From Gammaproteobacteria bacterium (GTDB lineage Bacteria; Pseudomonadota; Gammaproteobacteria; Eutrophobiales; Eutrophobiaceae): 64,000 nt of DNA. Of this stretch, positions 5,891-51,216 are shown piece after piece. Under the pieces are notes generated by a model, which saw only the letters and a program-made list of their open reading frames with translations, ran no database searches and was not told where the DNA came from. Made by a program: the position numbers and the translations under genes. Position 1 is the stretch's first letter. Each line of letters begins with the position of its first letter. Location of the stretch: NCBI GenBank assembly GCA_016179185.1, contig JACORW010000059.1, forward strand, positions 1,400 to 65,399. Direction: 5' to 3'.

Positions 5891-7177
5891 ATGAGCGCGG
5901 CGGAATCCGTCGCACTGCGCAGGGTCACCTGGCGCCTGCTGCCGTTTCTGCTGGTCACCTACATCATCTGCTGGCTGGACCGCGTCAACGTCGGCTTCGC
6001 CGCGTTGCAGATGAACCAGGACCTCGGCTTCAGCGCGACGGTGTACGGTTTCGGCGCCGGCGTGTTCTTCGCCGGTTACGCCCTGTTCGAGATCCCGAGC
6101 AATCTGATCCTGGCGCGTGTCGGCGCGCGCCGCTGGATCGCGCGCATCATGATCACATGGGGACTGATTTCGGCGTGCATGATGTTCGTGTTCGATTCCA
6201 GAAGCTTCTACGTCCTGCGTTTTCTGCTCGGTGTTGCCGAGGCGGGATTCCTTCCCGGCATCATTTACTACCTCGGTAACTGGTATCCGGGCCCGCAACG
6301 GGCCAGGGCCGTGGGCTGGTTCATGTCCGCGATTCCCCTGTCCATTGTGATTGGCGGGCCGCTGGCGGGCATGTTGCTCAGCATGGACGGCCTGATGGGA
6401 CTGCGCGGATGGCAGTGGCTGTATCTCGTCGAAGGCGCGCCGGCGTTTTTTCTCGGGTTTGTCGTGCTGGCGGTGCTTCCGGACAAGCCGTCCGACGTGC
6501 GCTGGCTCAGCGAATCCGAACGGGATCTCCTGAGTGCGCGCATCCGCGCCGAGCAGGAACAGGCGCGCGCGCAACATGGCCTGGGTCTCGGCCGGGCGAT
6601 GCTGCACCCGACGGTCTGGGCGCTGGCGCTGATCATGTTCACGTGCCAGTCGGGCAGTTACGGCCTGACGCTGTGGATGCCGCAAATCCTCAAGGGACTC
6701 TCGGGACTCAGCGACCTGCTGGTTGGCATGATCTCCGCTCTGCCCTACGTCGCCGCCGCCATCGGCATGGTGCTGATCGGCGCCAGTTCGGATCGCAGCG
6801 GCGAACGTTTTCTGCACATCGCGATCCCGAGCCTGGTCGCGGTAATCGGTTTCGTCGCCAGCGCATGGATCACATCCCCATTGCCGGCGCTGGTTGCGCT
6901 GACAGTCGCCGCGGTGGGTGACCTGGGCAGCCGCGGGCCGTTCTGGGCATTGCCCGGACGCTTTCTCGCCGGCAGCGCCGCCGCCGGGGCGATCGCGCTG
7001 ATCAATACCGTGGGCTCGCTGGGCGGCTTCGTCGGGCCCTATGCCGTGGGACTGGTCAAGGATGCCACCGGCAATTTCACCGGCGGGCTGATGTTCCTGG
7101 CCCTGTTGCTCCTGCTTGGCGCCTTCGGCACACTGCGGCTACGTGACGCCGCAGTGCTGCGCGCCGGCCCGCACTGA
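5891..7177 (+). CDS. MFS transporter (anion:cation symporter/ACS-like subfamily)
   Basis: 428-aa ORF with 12 TM-like segments. LDRVNVGFAALQM and GARRWIARIMITWG are typical of ACS-family MFS permeases. Confidence 0.85.
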   Translation: MSAAESVALRRVTWRLLPFLLVTYIICWLDRVNVGFAALQMNQDLGFSATVYGFGAGVFFAGYALFEIPSNLILARVGARRWIARIMITWGLISACMMFVFDSRSFYVLRFLLGVAEAGFLPGIIYYLGNWYPGPQRARAVGWFMSAIPLSIVIGGPLAGMLLSMDGLMGLRGWQWLYLVEGAPAFFLGFVVLAVLPDKPSDVRWLSESERDLLSARIRAEQEQARAQHGLGLGRAMLHPTVWALALIMFTCQSGSYGLTLWMPQILKGLSGLSDLLVGMISALPYVAAAIGMVLIGASSDRSGERFLHIAIPSLVAVIGFVASAWITSPLPALVALTVAAVGDLGSRGPFWALPGRFLAGSAAAGAIALINTVGSLGGFVGPYAVGLVKDATGNFTGGLMFLALLLLLGAFGTLRLRDAAVLRAGPH

Positions 7178-10430: not shown

Positions 10431-10515
10431 TAGCTACAAGCTACAAGCCACAAGCAACAAGGGAAACACTCCGTGGCTTGTGTCCTTGTAGCTTGTCGCT
10501 TGTTGCTTGTAGCTG
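10431..10515. repeat. heptamer-armed hairpin, GCNACAA/TTGTNGC family (copy A1)
   Basis: Left arm GCTACAA GCTACAA GCCACAA GCAACAA. Right arm TTGTAGC TTGTCGC TTGTTGC TTGTAGC. Occupies most of the 99-nt gltB-gltD intercistronic gap. Confidence 0.8.
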
Positions 10516-37007: not shown

Positions 37008-37170
37008 AATCTTCGATTACTTCCGCCCCCTCAACGGGGGAAATTCCATCTGATTAGTAAATTCAATGAGTTATGCTACACGGTTAAGTAGTGATGTCAA
37101 CATCATATTGCACTGCGGCATCAGCTTAATTTCTCAGACAGCGGAAACCGCGGGGGGTTCTGGGTCCGCA

Positions 37171-37222
37171 CAGTGAAAAGTGAAAAGAAATACCCTTCCT
37201 TCCACTTTTAACTTTGCACTGC
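37171..37222. repeat. heptamer-armed hairpin (copy B4, short)
   Basis: AGTGAAA AGTGAAA AGAAATA ... TTCCACTTTTAACTTTGCACT. Directly abuts MITE-like element F2. Confidence 0.6.
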
Positions 37223-37225
37223 ACA

Positions 37226-44129: not shown

Positions 44130-45089
44130 ATGACCCTCACGGAACTGCGCTACATCGTCGCCGTCGCCCGCGAGCGGCATTTCGGCCGCGCCGCGGCGGC
44201 GTGCTTCGTCAGTCAGCCGACGCTCAGCGTCGCCGTGCGCAAACTCGAGGATGAACTGGGCGTCGTGCTGTTCGAGCGGCATCAGCACGACGTCGCGATC
44301 ACGCCCGTCGGCGAGCGCATCGTGGAGCAGGCGCAACGCGTGCTGGAACAGGCGGGCGCCATCAAGGTCCTGGCCGGGGAAGGGCGCAACCAGTTGCACG
44401 GCGAGGCGCGCCTCGGCGTCATCTACACCGTCGGGCCGTATCTGCTGCCACGGCTGATCCCCGAACTGAATCAACGGGCACCCGCGCTGACACCCATCAT
44501 TGACGAGGACTTCACCGCCAATCTTGCGGTGAAACTGCGCCAGGGCTCCCTGGACATGGCGATCCTGTCAACGCCGTTCGATGTCCCCGGCATCGAGGTG
44601 CGGGTGCTGTACACGGAACCGTTCGTGGTGGCCCTGCCCAGGGGGCACAAACTCGCCGGACAGCGCCAGATACAGGCCGATGACCTGGCGCGCGAGACAT
44701 TATTACTGCTGCGCGCCGGAAACTGCTTCCGCGATCAGGTACTGGAGGCCTGCCCGGCCTGCCGCGGCGAAACTTTTTCCCGCACCGGCATCCAGAAGAG
44801 CCTCGAGGGCAGTTCCATTGAAACTATCCGGCAGATGGTGGCGGGCGGGGCCGGCGTCACGGTGCTGCCGGCAATGTCGATCCGCACCGAAAGCGGCATG
44901 GACAAGCTGCTGGTTTACCGGCCCTTTGCCGATCCGTCACCGCGGCGCGAGGTGGCGCTGGCGTATAGAGCCACGTTTCCGCGTCCAAAGCTCGTGGACT
45001 TGATTTCCGATACCGTTGCGGCTTGCAATCTTCCCGGCACATTAATAGCCACAAGCAACAAGCCACAAGCAACAAGTAAAACAACATAG
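44130..45089 (+). CDS. oxyR: LysR-family peroxide sensor OxyR
   Basis: 319 aa. HTH region RHFGRAAAACFVSQPTLSVAVRKLEDELG. The redox cysteine pair lies in GNCFRDQVLEAC (compare E. coli GHCLRDQAMGFC). The last 13 codons lie in repeat A2. Confidence 0.85.
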   Translation: MTLTELRYIVAVARERHFGRAAAACFVSQPTLSVAVRKLEDELGVVLFERHQHDVAITPVGERIVEQAQRVLEQAGAIKVLAGEGRNQLHGEARLGVIYTVGPYLLPRLIPELNQRAPALTPIIDEDFTANLAVKLRQGSLDMAILSTPFDVPGIEVRVLYTEPFVVALPRGHKLAGQRQIQADDLARETLLLLRAGNCFRDQVLEACPACRGETFSRTGIQKSLEGSSIETIRQMVAGGAGVTVLPAMSIRTESGMDKLLVYRPFADPSPRREVALAYRATFPRPKLVDLISDTVAACNLPGTLIATSNKPQATSKTT

Positions 45090-45131
45090 TGTTCGTCTTC
45101 ACCTTGTAGCTTGTGGCTTGTTGCTTGTGGC
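45048..45131. repeat. heptamer-armed hairpin (copy A2, near-perfect stem)
   Basis: Left arm GCCACAA GCAACAA GCCACAA GCAACAA. Right arm TTGTAGC TTGTGGC TTGTTGC TTGTGGC. Lies between the convergent oxyR and protease genes. Confidence 0.8.
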
Positions 45132-45142
45132 TTTCTTTAAAG

Positions 45143-47178: not shown

Positions 47179-47221
47179 GTTGCACCTCCTGAAATTTGCA
47201 GGTTTGTCGTCACACCCCTGT

Positions 47222-47249
47222 AGATGGGGTGCGGTCCTGATATTTCAAG
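47222..47249 (-). promoter_or_regulatory. sigma-32 (RpoH) heat-shock promoter
   Basis: The minus strand reads CCCTTGAAA-tatcaggaccgca-CCCCATCTA, against the consensus CCCTTGAA-N13-14-CCCCATNT. About 45 nt upstream of the hsp20 ATG at 47178. Confidence 0.7.
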
Positions 47250-47258
47250 GGGGAAATG

Positions 47259-47350
47259 ACAAGCTACAAGCTACAAGCTACAAGCTACAAGTACATGGAT
47301 CGCAGTGTTCAGTTTGGGTTCCTTGTCGCTCGTTGCTTGTAGCTTGTGGC
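47259..47350. repeat. heptamer-armed hairpin (copy A3)
   Basis: Left arm four GCTACAA units. Right arm TTGTCGC TCGTTGC TTGTAGC TTGTGGC. Lies between the coq7 stop and the sigma-32 promoter. Confidence 0.8.
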
Positions 47351-47355
47351 TGCCT

Positions 47356-48003
47356 TTATATCCGGTACGCCGTTGTCGTCATCACCCGCGCGGCCAGGGA
47401 CATGAGGCTTCGCACCGGTTCCGGCAGCTCGACCGCACCATTGCGCACAGCCTGGGCTGCATGCCGGCTTTCGTCATCGCGCATCTGGCGGACGATTTCC
47501 CGGCTGGGCAAGTCAGCGGCGGGCAGCATTCCCAGATGGGACTCCAGGTGCCGCACCACCTGTTGCTCGGTCTCGGCGACGAAACCCAGCCCCCAGCGAT
47601 CACCCAGCAGGCTGGCCACGGAGCCGATGGCAAAGGAGCCGGCATACCAGAACGGCCGCAACAGGCTGGGGCGGCTCCCCAGCGCCGCCAGCCGCTGTTC
47701 GCACCAGGCCAGGTGATCGGATTCTTCCTGCGCGGCCTGTTCCATGGCCTGCCGTGTGCGGTGGTCCCGCGCCCAGAACGCATGGGCCTGGTACAACGCC
47801 TGGGCCGCGATTTCGCCGGCATGGTTGACCCGCATCAGGCCGGCGGCGTGGCTGCGCTCTTCGGGTGTCAGTCGCCCGGCCTCACTCAATCCACCGGCGG
47901 GGTTTGCGCGGGAGGCATGGGCGGGACGGCCGAACGCGGCGCCCAGCACGCGATCGAGCCCGATGATCAGCCGATCCAGCGGCGTAAAATTGCGCGGTTC
48001 CAT
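47356..48003 (-). CDS. coq7: demethoxyubiquinone hydroxylase (di-iron Coq7 family)
   Basis: ORF 47356..48102 trimmed to ATG 48003. Di-iron motifs GEIAAQALY, EESDHLAW, ETEQQVVRHL and DESRHA. Confidence 0.88.
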   Translation of the reverse strand: MEPRNFTPLDRLIIGLDRVLGAAFGRPAHASRANPAGGLSEAGRLTPEERSHAAGLMRVNHAGEIAAQALYQAHAFWARDHRTRQAMEQAAQEESDHLAWCEQRLAALGSRPSLLRPFWYAGSFAIGSVASLLGDRWGLGFVAETEQQVVRHLESHLGMLPAADLPSREIVRQMRDDESRHAAQAVRNGAVELPEPVRSLMSLAARVMTTTAYRI

Positions 48004-48122
48004 GATCGAATCAGTCGGATGAATTTCCAGTAGATTCAGTATATTGACAGTGTCCGGGGCCGCCCGTACCATTGCGCGTCTTTTTTTGCCACGCCGGAAC
48101 AACCTTCCCGGAAGAAAACCAG

Positions 48123-48551
48123 ATGAAAACCTACACCGCCCGCCCGGCGGATATCAAGCGCGACTGGTTTCTGATCGACGCCAGCGGCAAGACGCTCGGC
48201 CGGCTTGCCACCGAGGTCGCCCGCCGCCTGCGTGGCAAGCACAAGGTCCAGTTTACGCCGCACATGGACACCGGCGATTACATCGTTGTCATCAATGCCC
48301 GTGAGGTGCGCGTGACCGGTCGCAAGGCAAAGGACAAGTTGTATCGCCGCCATTCCGGCTATCCCGGCGGCCTGACCAGCATCAGTTTCGAAAAGTTGCA
48401 AAAAACCAATCCGGTGCGCATCATCGAGACCGCGGTGAAAGGCATGCTGCCGAAAGGCCCCCTCGGCCGGCAGATGTTCCGCAAGCTGCGCGTGTATGCG
48501 GACGGAAAGCATCAGCATTCGGCGCAACAGCCCCAGACCTTGGAGACCTGA
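48123..48551 (+). CDS. rplM: 50S ribosomal protein L13
   Basis: ORF trimmed to ATG 48123. [41 protein letters not shown]. Confidence 0.97.
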
Positions 48552-48553
48552 AC

Positions 48554-48946
48554 GTGACCCAGCAGACCTATGCCACCACCGGGCGCCGCAAGAGCAGCTC
48601 GGCGCGCGTGTTCCTGAGCAAGGGCACGGGCAAGATCACCGTCAACGATCGCACGCTGGAGCAGTACTTCGGCCGCGAGACCGGCCGCATGATGGTGCGC
48701 CAGCCGCTCGAAACCGTGAAGATGACGGATATCATTGACGTGACCATCACCGTCACCGGCGGCGGCATCACCGGCCAGGCGGGCGCCATCCGCCACGGCA
48801 TCTCCCGCGCCCTGGTGCAATACGACGAGACTCTGCGCAAGCAATTGCGCCAGGCCGGCCTGCTGACCAGGGACTCCCGCGAAGTCGAGAGAAAAAAGGT
48901 TGGGTTGCATAAAGCACGTAAGCGTCCTCAGTACTCGAAACGCTGA
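48554..48946 (+). CDS. rpsI: 30S ribosomal protein S9
   Basis: 130 aa, GTG start 2 nt after the rplM stop. [19 protein letters not shown] and C-terminal [11 protein letters not shown]. Confidence 0.97.
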
Positions 48947-48955
48947 CGCGTTTCA

Positions 48956-49412
48956 GCAACAAGCCACAAGCTACAAGCCACAAGGAGGTGGCAATGGATG
49001 CGCTCAGCGAATTGAATGTCTGGCGCCGCAGCAAATCTCTGGCCGTGAATATCTATCGGGCCATGTCAGTGTGTCGGGATCGGGCGTTCAAGGAACAAAT
49101 CACGCGAGCGGCAGTATCAATTCCCTCGAACATTGCCGAAGGCTATGAACGCTCGTCGCGCAAAGAGTTCGCACGCTACCTGCAGATTGCTCGGGGATCG
49201 TGTGCGGAATTGAGAACGCAAATCCAGATCGGCCAGGATATTGGATACTTCAGCAAGGAGCATGGAGACAATCTGTTAAAGGAAGCACTGGAGTTAACCA
49301 AGATGATGCAAGCACTCATCAACCGGTGCCGTGCTTCCAGCCAGCAATGACGGATTGTTGTGGTGAACTTCTTTTACTTGTAACTTGTAGCTTGTCGCTT
49401 ATAGCTTGTTGC
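48956..49412 (+). mobile_element. IVS-like stem-loop element: heptamer arms (copy A4) enclosing a four-helix-bundle gene
   Basis: Left arm GCAACAA GCCACAA GCTACAA GCCACAA GG (48956-48985). Right arm TTGTAAC TTGTAGC TTGTCGC TTATAGC TTGTTGC (49376-49412). A single ORF sits between them. Confidence 0.7.
48994..49350 (+). CDS. four-helix-bundle protein (23S rRNA intervening-sequence protein / Avd-like family)
   Basis: 118 codons from ATG 48994, 5 nt after AAGGAGG. LAVNIYRAM...ITRAAVSIPSNIAEGYERSSRKEFARYLQIARGSCAELRTQ is the family signature as I know it. Confidence 0.88.
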   Translation: MDALSELNVWRRSKSLAVNIYRAMSVCRDRAFKEQITRAAVSIPSNIAEGYERSSRKEFARYLQIARGSCAELRTQIQIGQDIGYFSKEHGDNLLKEALELTKMMQALINRCRASSQQ

Positions 49413-49419
49413 TCTCCTC

Positions 49420-49493
49420 TGGGGGATCGTCTAACGGTAGGACAGCGGACTCTGACTCCGCCAGTCTAGGTTCGAATCCTAGTCCCCCAGCCA
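49420..49493 (+). tRNA. tRNA-Gln (anticodon CUG)
   Basis: Manual cloverleaf. Acceptor TGGGGGA/TCCCCCA. D stem GTCT/GGAC. Anticodon stem GCGGA/TCCGC with loop CTCTGAC. T arm CTAGG-TTCGAAT-CCTAG. Discriminator G and encoded CCA. Confidence 0.9.
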
Positions 49494-49945
49494 AAAATGA
49501 AGCGACCCCTCACCCAGGGGTCGCTTCGTTTTTGGCCGTGGGGGGCTCAGGGTACGAGCCTTCGTTCGACAAAATTGTCGGGAACAATTTTGGACAGCGG
49601 CGCGCAGTGCCGCTGGCCCCGCAGGGGCGAGCCCCAGGGATGGGGCGAGCAATCCTAGTCCCCCAGCCAAAAAATGCCACTACCCCGCTGAGGGGTGGTG
49701 GCATTTTTCGTTGGGGGCTCAGGAGGCGAACCTTCGTTCGACAAAATCGCCGGGACAATTTCGCCGGGAGCGAAATTGGACGCCCGGCAGGGCCGCCCGG
49801 GGGGCGCAGACCACGGATGGTCTGCGTCAACAATTTTGGACAGCGGCGCGCAGTGCCGCTGGCCCCGCAGGGGCGAGCCTCAAGGATGAGGCGAGCAATC
49901 CTGGTCCCCCAGCCAAAAAACTCAATGGCCCACCGCGTGTGGGCC
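49475..49945 (+). repeat. three direct copies of the tRNA-Gln 3' end, each followed by its own hairpin, separated by conserved modules
   Basis: AATCCTAGTCCCCCAGCCA at 49475-49493 and 49651-49669. AATCCTGGTCCCCCAGCCA at 49897-49915. Hairpins at 49499-49533, 49674-49708 and 49927-49945. Confidence 0.8.
49499..49533 (+). terminator. rho-independent terminator after tRNA-Gln
   Basis: GAAGCGACCCCtcacccaGGGGTCGCTTC followed by GTTTTT. Confidence 0.8.
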
Positions 49946-49959
49946 GTTCCGGTTTTAAT

Positions 49960-51216
49960 TCAGTCCGGCAGCACAAGGACGAGAAATCCATCGGGCGCCA
50001 GGCGCGTCGCCAGCATCACCTCGTTGATATCCTGGTGCTCCAACCAGGTGCTGGCGCGTTGATGCGCGGGGACACGCCAGAACGATTCGATTTCGTTGCC
50101 CAGGGGCACATAGCGCATGAGCGCCTCAAGCTCCGCGCGAACCGCATGGCGTACGGCAATGGGATTCTGTCCGGCCGGCTGCCGCATGCGCTCGACGGCG
50201 TGCAGCCCGATTGCCAGCCCGAGTTCCCGAAAGGCAAGCCGATGCTCAGCCGGCGTTCGCAGTTCCCCGCTTCGGGCGTAGTACTCGAGACCCGCAAGCG
50301 CCGCCCCGAGCAGGTGCTCAGGAAAATCCCCATCCGACAGCAGACCCTGGTCGATCAGTTGCACTACGCGATAGGCGTCTACCAGGAGTTCGCCGATGCC
50401 GAGTGGATCGGCACTCGCCAAATCGGCGCCTGTTGTCATCTGCGCATACCGCCGGCCAACCTCTCCAAGATCGGGACCGCCGGGCGGTTGGGGGAGCCGG
50501 TCCACCGTGGTGCGCAGTTGCATCGTTGTGATGTAGCCGCCCAGCGGATCATGCTGCCCCATCGAAGGCACAAGCGGGCGCCTGAGATCGATGCTCATCT
50601 TCCAGTACATCCTTGGGGTATGGTTCGCGGAAGGCAGGTAGGTGAAGGCAACATATGCGCTTCCTGCAAGCTCCTGTGCCCAAGATCTGAACCTGGGATC
50701 TCCTGTGGACCGGCTCACCTGATCCAGGGCGTGCATCCACTTCGTCAGATAATGAAAATACTGGCCATCGCGCTCCCACTCCAGACGCTCGTCGTAGGGT
50801 TCGTCTTCGCCGCGCTCCGGGAGGCGCTTGCCTATGCGAAGTCCGCCGCGGGTGGGATGGGCTTCGGCCTCGTCCGTGCCCAGCCCGCTGATCCAGCCCT
50901 TGCGTTGATCGTCGGCCCGGTGCCGGCCGAGCACGTGGTGGACCTGATCGACCAGTCGCAGCGCGAGATCGGTGTAGCGCTGCTCGCCGGTCGCGCGCGC
51001 CAGACCCAAAAAGTTGCACACCGCGAACGCATCGGTCCACAGATAACGCCGCGGCGGGCGATCGGAATCGAGCCCGGTGCGCTGGGCGAAGCTCTGCATC
51101 ATTGCGATGGCCTCCGCGGTACGCGCATCAGATACAGTCATCGATTCCTCTCGTGCGTTTGTGATCGCCGGCCCGAGCGACAGCAGCACGATCACCCCCG
51201 CAACGCGGACCTGCAT
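49960..51216 (-). CDS. exported hypothetical protein
   Basis: 418 aa. Signal peptide MQVRVAGVIVLLSLGPAITNA. Ordinary amino-acid composition, unlike the Arg-rich antisense ORF 49711..51441. Starts 3 nt after the CapA-like stop. Confidence 0.65.
   Translation of the reverse strand: MQVRVAGVIVLLSLGPAITNAREESMTVSDARTAEAIAMMQSFAQRTGLDSDRPPRRYLWTDAFAVCNFLGLARATGEQRYTDLALRLVDQVHHVLGRHRADDQRKGWISGLGTDEAEAHPTRGGLRIGKRLPERGEDEPYDERLEWERDGQYFHYLTKWMHALDQVSRSTGDPRFRSWAQELAGSAYVAFTYLPSANHTPRMYWKMSIDLRRPLVPSMGQHDPLGGYITTMQLRTTVDRLPQPPGGPDLGEVGRRYAQMTTGADLASADPLGIGELLVDAYRVVQLIDQGLLSDGDFPEHLLGAALAGLEYYARSGELRTPAEHRLAFRELGLAIGLHAVERMRQPAGQNPIAVRHAVRAELEALMRYVPLGNEIESFWRVPAHQRASTWLEHQDINEVMLATRLAPDGFLVLVLPD

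Follow-up and report, generated by a model that had tools for sequence, protein, structure and literature searches.

What is a gene of the rRNA intervening-sequence protein family doing with a ribosomal-protein gene on one side and a tRNA gene on the other, and why is it enclosed by tandem heptamer repeats that face their own complement? The question is raised by a locus in the Gammaproteobacteria assembly GCA_016179185.1, of which a stretch of 64,000 nucleotides (contig JACORW010000059.1, positions 1,400 to 65,399 of the forward strand; hereafter the window) was analysed. We identify the feature, with high confidence, as a cassette of the intervening-sequence (IVS) type that carries a PF05635 gene between heptamer arms phased on the dinucleotide AG, is fixed in a ribosomal-protein/tRNA operon and is accompanied by hairpins that have the same arms but no open reading frame (ORF). 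The explanation that we prefer for the whole, and to which we assign a probability of roughly 45%, is that it represents a form of the ORF-bearing IVS found outside rRNA, which would be co-transcribed with its host genes and have its stem cut in the manner of an rRNA IVS.

The cassette lies on the plus strand between rpsI (ribosomal protein S9, 48554-48946, stop codon TGA at 48944-48946) and a tRNA-Gln gene with anticodon CTG (49420-49493). Its 5' arm begins 9 nt past the rpsI stop and its 3' arm ends 7 nt ahead of the tRNA, which agrees with the original observation that both neighbours stand within about 10 nt. The 5' arm (48955-48985) consists of the units AGCAACA, AGCCACA, AGCTACA and AGCCACA followed by AGG, and is best phased as (AGCNACA)4AG, that is, four heptamers plus AG, giving five AGs at a spacing of 7 nt. 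The 3' arm (49378-49412, or 49376-49413 with a flanking AC and T) is made of the five CT-phased units TTGTAAC, TTGTAGC, TTGTCGC, TTATAGC and TTGTTGC, which are complementary to the 5' arm. The left arm had been placed correctly at 48956-48985, whereas the right arm had been started two bases too early, at 49376. The final 5' unit merges into a Shine-Dalgarno sequence (AAGGAGG, 48982-48988) five bases ahead of the ATG at 48994, as had been noticed from the letters, and the gene that follows (48994-49350, 118 codons in the ORF list) fills the loop.

The variable N positions are complementary between the arms in just 6 of 16 cases, and the stem is therefore mismatched about every 7 bp. Folding bore out the stem that had been proposed: the spacers before and after the ORF form a predicted duplex of -40.5 kcal/mol (z-score -4.3), and the arm-arm stem is the outermost helix of the minimum free energy structure of the 486-nt region, the fold of which is as a whole unexceptional (z -1.57). 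The ORF is thus enclosed, as in an IVS, by a predicted long stem formed from terminal inverted repeats. When the window was searched with the double-heptamer pattern, 26 matches were observed against 5.15 expected, and none of 100 shuffles scored as high. All 26 are confined to the cassette and to three hairpins at 10432-10514 (H1), 45047-45133 (H2) and 47257-47350 (H3); the cargo-less copies of the arms that had been suspected at these places are real.

The family assignment of the encoded protein was verified with profile models. The 118-codon product scores 116 bits with Pfam PF05635, for which the cut-off is 33.8 (E-value 9.7e-34), and also matches the NCBIfam models TIGR02436 (6.2e-34) and NF008912 (6.6e-45), which places it in the Avd/IVS-protein family of four-helix bundles. 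It is identical to a protein of one Gammaproteobacteria metagenome-assembled genome (MAG) and keeps the family-invariant residues W10, Q35, R38, S42, N46-G50, R53, E72, R74-Q76 and E97. A profile built from its relatives matches PDB entry 2GSC (E 1.5e-26) and also 2RLD, both of which are five-chain entries. Searches of PADLOC and PHROGs with the gene product returned zero matches, and assignment to a defence system or a phage family was discarded on that ground. We also rejected a diversity-generating retroelement (DGR), the setting in which Avd proteins occur: neither a reverse transcriptase nor a template/variable repeat pair adjoins the gene, and its flanks here and at eight syntenic loci are rpsI and tRNA-Gln instead of a DGR context.

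The order rpsI, arm, gene, arm, tRNA-Gln(CTG) is kept in nine syntenic loci, from Thiohalophilus, Acidiferrobacteraceae, Chromatiales and other relatives. The closer homologues, at 62-65% protein identity, share the longer order HSP20, COQ7, rplM, rpsI, arm, gene, arm, tRNA-Gln(CTG), while the loci that a scan of genomes contributed, those of Thiohalophilus, Acidiferrobacteraceae, Chromatiales and a further gammaproteobacterial MAG, are arranged alike at 44-53% identity. The heptamers themselves have turned over among these loci, being AGCTACA in L002 and L003, AGTTACA/AGTCATA in the AT-rich L001, AGTAGCT/AGTGGCT in L006 and L007, and AGGACCG-like in L041. Despite this change the two spacers are mutually complementary in all seven loci tested, with duplexes of -22 to -91 kcal/mol and z-scores of -3.2 to -12.2. 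A Shine-Dalgarno sequence is present in each orthologue read and the invariant residues in every orthologue aligned, which argues that the gene is expressed and constrained. Judged by this synteny, the cassette is long fixed between rpsI and tRNA-Gln. The idea that it is a recent or visibly mobile insertion fails accordingly, since all nine loci retain it, at identities down to 44%. One of them, L007, carries a second heptamer array of the same orientation after the stop codon of the gene (6345-6430), so that its 3' arm may pair with either the distant 5' arm or the nearby array, giving two alternative structures.

How such a cassette could be tolerated in this position is suggested by the layout of the transcription unit. 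The sole promoter-like site ahead of the cassette and the tRNA is a sigma-70-like sequence upstream of rplM (TTGACA-17-TACCAT, 10 of 12 matches, 48044-48072, plus strand); none was found between 48946 and 49420. Beyond the tRNA a GC-rich hairpin with a 12-bp stem and a T-run (49499-49535) forms a terminator-like end, which is listed on the minus strand by the terminator scan and also ends in a T-run on the plus strand. With this lone promoter-like site and this hairpin as its limits, the cassette is most simply part of an rplM-rpsI-tRNA-Gln transcript. We propose, with moderate confidence drawn from the rRNA-borne relatives and the anatomy, a mechanism of co-transcription, arm pairing and RNase III-type processing. 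The rplM promoter would drive a transcript that runs through rplM, rpsI, the arm-gene-arm cassette (which has no promoter-like site of its own) and tRNA-Gln and ends at the post-tRNA hairpin. In this precursor the arms would pair into a duplex of about 30 bp, interrupted about every 7 bp, where the 3' end of the rpsI message meets the tRNA leader. A double-strand-specific RNase, probably RNase III as for the rRNA-borne relatives, would then cut the stem and separate the ribosomal-protein mRNA, the four-helix-bundle mRNA and the pre-tRNA; because the three RNAs would come apart in this way, the inserted gene would leave its hosts undisturbed.

Relatives of the gene, at 37-54% identity, were surveyed at 80 genome loci of Poribacteria, Verrucomicrobiota, Planctomycetota, Bacteroidota, Clostridia, Desulfobacterota, Acidobacteriota, Caldiserica and various classes of proteobacteria; the overall set comprised 85 sequence sources and spanned many phyla. 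For each gene the 200 nt upstream were compared with the 350 nt downstream in a search for gapless inverted repeats, and crude gene calls from the survey loci themselves served as controls. Most of the loci carry arms of 17-86 nt, nearly throughout with a period of 7 and in a few cases of 8. Inverted arms of period 7 or 8 enclose 53 of 82 PF05635 genes (65%) but only 3 of 435 control genes (0.7%), an enrichment of about 90-fold. Paired arrays in the 875 kb surveyed comprise 42 around a PF05635 gene, 15 short hairpins and three mis-pairings of neighbouring arrays, and no other genuine cargo was seen within them. The heptamer-arm layout is thus, in many phyla, the normal way in which PF05635 genes are packaged. 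It extends to plasmids: family genes of Calothrix and Nostoc have CT-phased heptamers 3' of the stop codon, with AG-phased units upstream as well in Calothrix. On the Nostoc PCC 7120 plasmids alpha and gamma (L205 and L206) the four-helix-bundle genes are identical, and insertion-sequence/transposase sequence lies at the expected position of the 5' arm.

Which heptamer a cassette carries is related to which protein it encodes. The identities of heptamer and protein are correlated across the survey (Spearman -0.18, permutation p 0.0005), and identical heptamers accompany 50-67% protein identity against a background of about 45%. The pair formed by a Gemmataceae and a Neisseriaceae cassette, from different phyla, has AGTTTTC in common at 67% protein identity. 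Since protein and heptamer correlate and pairs from different phyla share both, gene and arms appear to move as a unit. Where two cassettes occur at one locus, each usually has a heptamer of its own.

The composition of the arms is more regular than pairing would call for. The repeat period is 7 in 45-50 arrays and 8 in 8 arrays. Of 53 5' arms, 39 have AG in a fixed phase where 36% would be expected to (p 6e-8), and only 7 have CT so placed; the 3' arm mirrors this, with CT in fixed phase, and the other five positions of the heptamer vary between loci. The number of units per arm has a median of 4.3-4.4 and ranges from 2 to 38. What is conserved is one degenerate 7-mer serving both arms, its period and its AG/CT phase, none of which is required by a stem alone.

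Several of these observations, together with others, count against co-transcription and stem cleavage as a sufficient explanation. Tandem 7-mers (rarely 8-mers) in every phylum, with phase-fixed AG and CT, are not accounted for by mere stem complementarity, and 18% of arm positions are mismatched, with no compensation at the variable ones. Mismatches in 74 arm pairs show no bias towards wobble pairing (96 of the G.U type and 107 of the A.C type). Unit shuffling at 19 loci gave no individually significant case of mirrored unit order between the arms (Wilcoxon p 0.04). None of these results gave a sign of selection on pairing itself. Co-orientation of PF05635 genes with their neighbours is only slightly above baseline (78% and 74% against 68%), and the Coxiella IVS-encoded protein has been judged not to be expressed. 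Two apparent signatures of a role in RNA were set aside in the same connection: the G.U and A.C counts cannot separate an RNA from a DNA role, and AG/CT polarity is no proof of an RNA role, because an inverted repeat reads alike on both strands and its polarity is relative to the dyad only.

Uncompensated variable positions and the missing G.U bias keep periodic recognition by a protein as a serious rival. On this hypothetical account, which we consider possible although on the whole improbable, the arrays would be periodic binding sites of the encoded protein acting as a pentamer, each subunit of which would read a single AG, 7 nt from the next, in single-stranded RNA (or DNA). Such binding would be in competition with the pairing of the arms, autoregulate the cassette and act in trans on hairpins of the same heptamer, and it may coexist with RNase III processing. 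The confinement of the period to 7 or 8, the fixed AG with depletion of CT, and the variation of the other five positions between loci, with a motif rather than a helix conserved, are all what such a reader would leave behind. Each of the four AGCNACA elements in the window offers five AGs at a constant 7-nt spacing in its 5' arm, which is the arrangement of sites of the HutP/TRAP type, and the median arm elsewhere is close to this number of units. The family crystallises in five-chain assemblies, a homopentameric toroid has been cited for it (PMC4990558), and its proteins are mostly basic, with a median isoelectric point of 8.9 and a value of 9.55 for the window product. The following of protein by heptamer across phyla, the usual presence of two heptamers at two-cassette loci and the frequent sharing of a cassette's heptamer by cargo-less hairpins nearby (L020, L046, L056, L068, L031) point in the same direction. 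There is precedent in HutP, which recognises XAG with a 4-nt spacer in a terminator hairpin (PMC2425495), and in TRAP, which reads GAG/UAG repeats. The fit of a pentameric family, basic proteins and five AGs per window arm to a ring protein is no more than suggestive. It is weakened by arms that run to 10-38 units or have no AG at all (GGGAATC, GCTGCGG), and the correlation of protein with heptamer is equally explained by cassettes that are inherited or transferred as units.

The cargo-less hairpins bear on both accounts. H1, with the structure (AGCNACA)4AG, loop and CT(TGTNGCT)4, lies in the gltB-gltD intercistronic spacer, 5 nt past the gltB stop (-51 kcal/mol, z -8.1). LysR-family and DegP-like genes converge on H2, which is 9 nt away from the degP stop (z -10 to -11), and H3, recognised by pattern and fold, is found 5 nt past the stop codon of COQ7, upstream of the region with the HSP20 promoter. 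Unit number is uniform, the cassette and all three hairpins having exactly (AGCNACA)4AG. A second family with the unit AGTGAAA (and TTTCACT in the opposite arm) was revealed by repeat search and folding as a hairpin at 983-1082, between divergent lgt and DUF255-thioredoxin genes, and by repeat search as a two-unit mini hairpin at 37170-37225. The three AGCNACA hairpins fold with -43 to -58 kcal/mol (z -4.6 to -11). The AGTGAAA family is also AG-phased and has no matching four-helix-bundle gene within the window, from which we predict a cognate AGTGAAA cassette elsewhere in the genome.

Neither H1-H3 nor the cassette arms have the form of an intrinsic terminator: all lack a T-run behind them, a terminator scan of 47900-50100 omits the arms, and H1 is internal to an operon. 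Comparable operon-internal hairpins occur between groES and groEL in Xanthomonas and between proB and proA in Geobacter, and hairpins so placed are presumably transcribed and not strong terminators. Under the processing explanation the cargo-less hairpins would be ORF-less copies of the same arms, transcribed as intercistronic or 3'-end hairpins (for instance in gltBD) and either processed or RNA-stabilising. Searches of Rfam with the arms and hairpins yielded nothing, even at E<=1.

At least two of the three hairpins have been gained in the lineage of the window, since they are absent from orthologous sites of relatives. H3 is missing from the HSP20-COQ7 spacer of L001-L003, and H2 from the LysR/degP junction of L208 and L209, where the spacer is either zero or contains an ordinary GC hairpin. 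Over the 36 kb of L208 and L209 in total, the cassette arms are the sole heptamer arrays, without cargo-less copies. The LysR-family ORF (44130-45089) continues through the 5' arm of H2 to a stop codon in the loop, about 13 residues beyond the expected end of homology, so that the insertion of H2 appears to have replaced the original stop codon. Upstream of HSP20 a conserved promoter of the sigma-32 type (CTTGAAA ... CCCCATCT, 47215-47255, minus strand) is also present in the spacers of L001-L003, and H3 lies as an insertion between this promoter and the stop codon of COQ7.

These gains raise the alternative of an element that is mobile at the level of DNA, with the arrays as terminal inverted repeats, the gene as a factor for mobility or maintenance, and the cargo-less hairpins as non-autonomous derivatives, spread to new intergenic sites and comparable to MITEs (miniature inverted-repeat transposable elements). 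Cargo-bearing and cargo-less copies with the same arms do coexist in one genome, the cargo-less ones being more numerous; three AGCNACA and two AGTGAAA hairpins in 64 kb resemble MITEs in their terminal inverted repeats and copy number, and H2 and H3 in their presence or absence at orthologous sites. That gene and arms travel together across phyla, and that a family gene occurs inside 23S rRNA helices of other bacteria, would also suit mobility. Alignment revealed, however, no target-site duplication or flanking direct repeat at H1-H3 or at the cassette ends, and the three loops are related neither to one another nor to the cassette interior, so that a target duplication and a shared interior, the other hallmarks of MITEs, are both lacking. 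Internal deletion of a cassette was rejected as the origin of the hairpins, as their loops fail to align with the cassette ends. The arms differ between cassettes of one genome, unlike ends that are recognised by one transposase, and a helical bundle of 118 residues without a recognisable nuclease or recombinase motif, and without a PADLOC or PHROGs match, is a poor candidate for a mobility enzyme. The cassette has moreover stayed in place while its protein diverged to 44% identity. We regard this explanation as improbable. Of the proposal that the locus belongs to a family of mobile or processable stem-loops, the gain of H2 and H3 upholds one half; the cargo-bearing copy is neither recent nor visibly mobile, and its description as an autonomous member stays unproven, with no target-site duplication and no recombinase found.

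Approached from the repeat side, the picture is less tidy. When metagenomes were scanned for (AGCNACA)4AG, the yield was at least 120 stretches from unrelated organisms. Some 85 of about 126 arrays are unpaired, 13 form short hairpins and 10 are pairs spaced by more than 150 nt; one of these ten wide pairs encloses a family gene (L170, a confirmed cassette) and one a different small ORF (L092). The family gene was present in just two of the 120 scanned loci, composite or morphing arrays also occur, and unpaired arrays are oriented 10 against 9 relative to neighbouring genes, with no sense/antisense bias. In L092 (1057-1560) AGCTACA arms surround a 110-residue ORF rich in CxxC-like motifs, and in L118 (5842-6200) two tRNA genes have AGCNACA arrays about 10 nt upstream and heptamer arrays of an unrelated kind downstream. 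These two loci indicate that heptamer arms do not belong to the four-helix-bundle gene alone. Arrays of heptamers hence occur far more often than PF05635 genes, whereas most family genes sit inside such arrays. With mostly unpaired or composite arrays, two loci with a family gene and no strand bias, the scan says little on function, although unpaired arrays that have no family gene nearby and no preferred strand also detract from a pentameric reader.

The abundance of unpaired arrays speaks for a neutral origin, in which heptamers would arise by slippage, template switching would keep the palindrome, and PF05635 genes would land or survive in hairpin-prone sites. Composite arrays, the pair around a different ORF in L092, unit numbers from 2 to 38, a copy number that differs between Coxiella strains and the lack of any compensatory pattern are all compatible with functionless by-products. 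By-products of slippage would not be expected, though, to show an enrichment of about 90-fold over neighbouring genes, a period confined to 7-8 with conserved AG/CT phasing, or uniformly four units plus AG in all four AGCNACA elements of the window, and the complementarity of the arms has been retained throughout the history of the rpsI-tRNA-Gln clade despite sequence turnover. We therefore consider such an origin very improbable; both it and mobility at the level of DNA are less likely than processing or a pentameric reader.

The immediate neighbourhood of the cassette has further features. The rplM gene (ribosomal protein L13, 48122-48551, plus strand, ORF list) precedes rpsI, and its syntenic orthologues are called as PF00572; rpsI is 65-73% identical by tblastn to rpsI of eight syntenic loci, and the tRNA-Gln called by ARAGORN on the plus strand scores 62.4 bits with Rfam RF00005. 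Sequence reading and a predicted fold show a small hairpin, GAAACGC-TGAC-GCGTTTC (48937-48954, plus strand), immediately 5' of the 5' arm; its loop contains the rpsI stop codon. Such a hairpin is present at six of the eight distinct syntenic loci read, the relatives with it including L001, L006, L007, L016 and L041. On the other side, the last 23 nt of the tRNA-Gln region (49475-49497) recur downstream at 49651-49673 and 49897-49919. These copies belong to two tandem modules of about 246 nt, each with a hairpin, which share a 92-nt repeat (49583-49674 and 49829-49920). The modules resemble what site-specific integrations into the tRNA 3' end might leave behind as stacked remnants.

The link between heptamer repeats and one protein family may join three loose ends into one problem: the function of the IVS-protein/Avd-like family, the purpose of ORF-bearing rRNA IVSs, and the excess of heptanucleotide repeats in bacteria. 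The family has thousands of genes and solved structures, and no known role outside DGRs. For annotation, the layout provides a simple rule by which cassettes and their ORF-less derivatives can be recognised. In its boldest form, which we put forward as a speculation and think unlikely, the PF05635 pentamer would be a sequence-specific reader of AG-phased heptamer arrays, with each paralogue matching its own heptamer, and the short tandemly repeated repetitive (STRR) sequences of cyanobacteria, the GGGAATC repeats, the Geobacter sites and the cargo-less hairpins of the window would be its operators or non-autonomous copies. If that were true, a single protein-RNA system would show itself in three forms, as rRNA IVSs, as cassettes embedded in operons and as dispersed hairpins. 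Experiments are opened in culturable species for which a crystal structure exists, such as Xanthomonas with XCC0516.

That protein leads to the first known systems with which the window may be compared. In Xanthomonas, GGGAATC repeats form 70-75 inverted pairs per genome, one of them between groES and groEL, and repeats are described from Nostoc as well (PMC4692102); Geobacter metallireducens has paired hepta- or octanucleotide 'global regulator sites', for example at proB-proA (PMC2700814). Four GGGAATC-type units make up repeat no. 15 of Rehm et al., which is 6 nt away from accB/bccP and overlaps with the start annotated for XCC0516, the protein of PDB 2GSC. Like the arrays of the window, the STRR, Xanthomonas and Geobacter repeats are tandem 7-8-mers, typically of 4-5 units, which are intergenic, often operon-internal and frequently arranged as convergent inverted pairs with a variable gap, and on these features the window arrays belong with them. 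The published repeats differ in heptamer and have been read as G-quadruplex formers or as sites of the IHF/HU type, unconnected to PF05635. The original statement that the arrangement fits no described class is thus partly right: the layout is standard for PF05635 genes and the hairpins resemble these repeats, while our literature search, which lay outside the curated TIGRFAM/CDD family comments, found no paper linking PF05635 to heptamer arrays.

In their placement H1-H3 also match the Correia/NEMIS (Neisseria miniature insertion sequence) type of element. Correia/NEMIS elements, hairpin MITEs and repetitive extragenic palindromic (REP) sequences are short intergenic or intercistronic inverted repeats near stop codons, which are co-transcribed and processed and the long RNA hairpins of which can be cut by RNase III or stabilise the mRNA upstream. 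Their arms, in contrast, are unique sequences and not tandem heptamers, and Correia elements carry a TA target duplication, which was not seen at the window hairpins. On the side of the proteins, the HutP hexamer binds XAG with a 4-nt spacer, hence with a period of 7, and contacts the A and the G (PMC2425495). HutP sites thus resemble the window arms in having AG at period 7 inside a hairpin that the protein opens, although the folds of HutP and TRAP are unrelated to the four-helix bundle. Avd of DGRs is a homologous pentameric four-helix bundle and acts on nucleic acid with a partner enzyme; the window gene differs in having neither an adjoining reverse transcriptase nor a template/variable repeat pair.

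The ORF-bearing IVSs of 23S rRNA in Leptospira and Coxiella burnetii have, as the window cassette has, a PF05635 ORF in the loop of a long stem. The hosts differ, the window element being housed in a ribosomal-protein/tRNA operon and not in a 23S helix (Rfam detected no rRNA across the whole window), and its ORF has a strong Shine-Dalgarno sequence and is conserved in its clade, whereas the Coxiella ORF is decaying. RNase III cleavage has been demonstrated for the Coxiella IVS, while the window cassette is known from its sequence. The parallel with rRNA IVSs that had been drawn holds all the same, and is closer than was claimed: the Coxiella IVS shares the tandem heptamers before the start codon, with three to four copies of GACAGAT (AGATGAC in AG phase) directly ahead of the S23p ATG, a repeat copy number that differs between strains, and a stem that RNase III cuts at the first repeat (PMC4990558).

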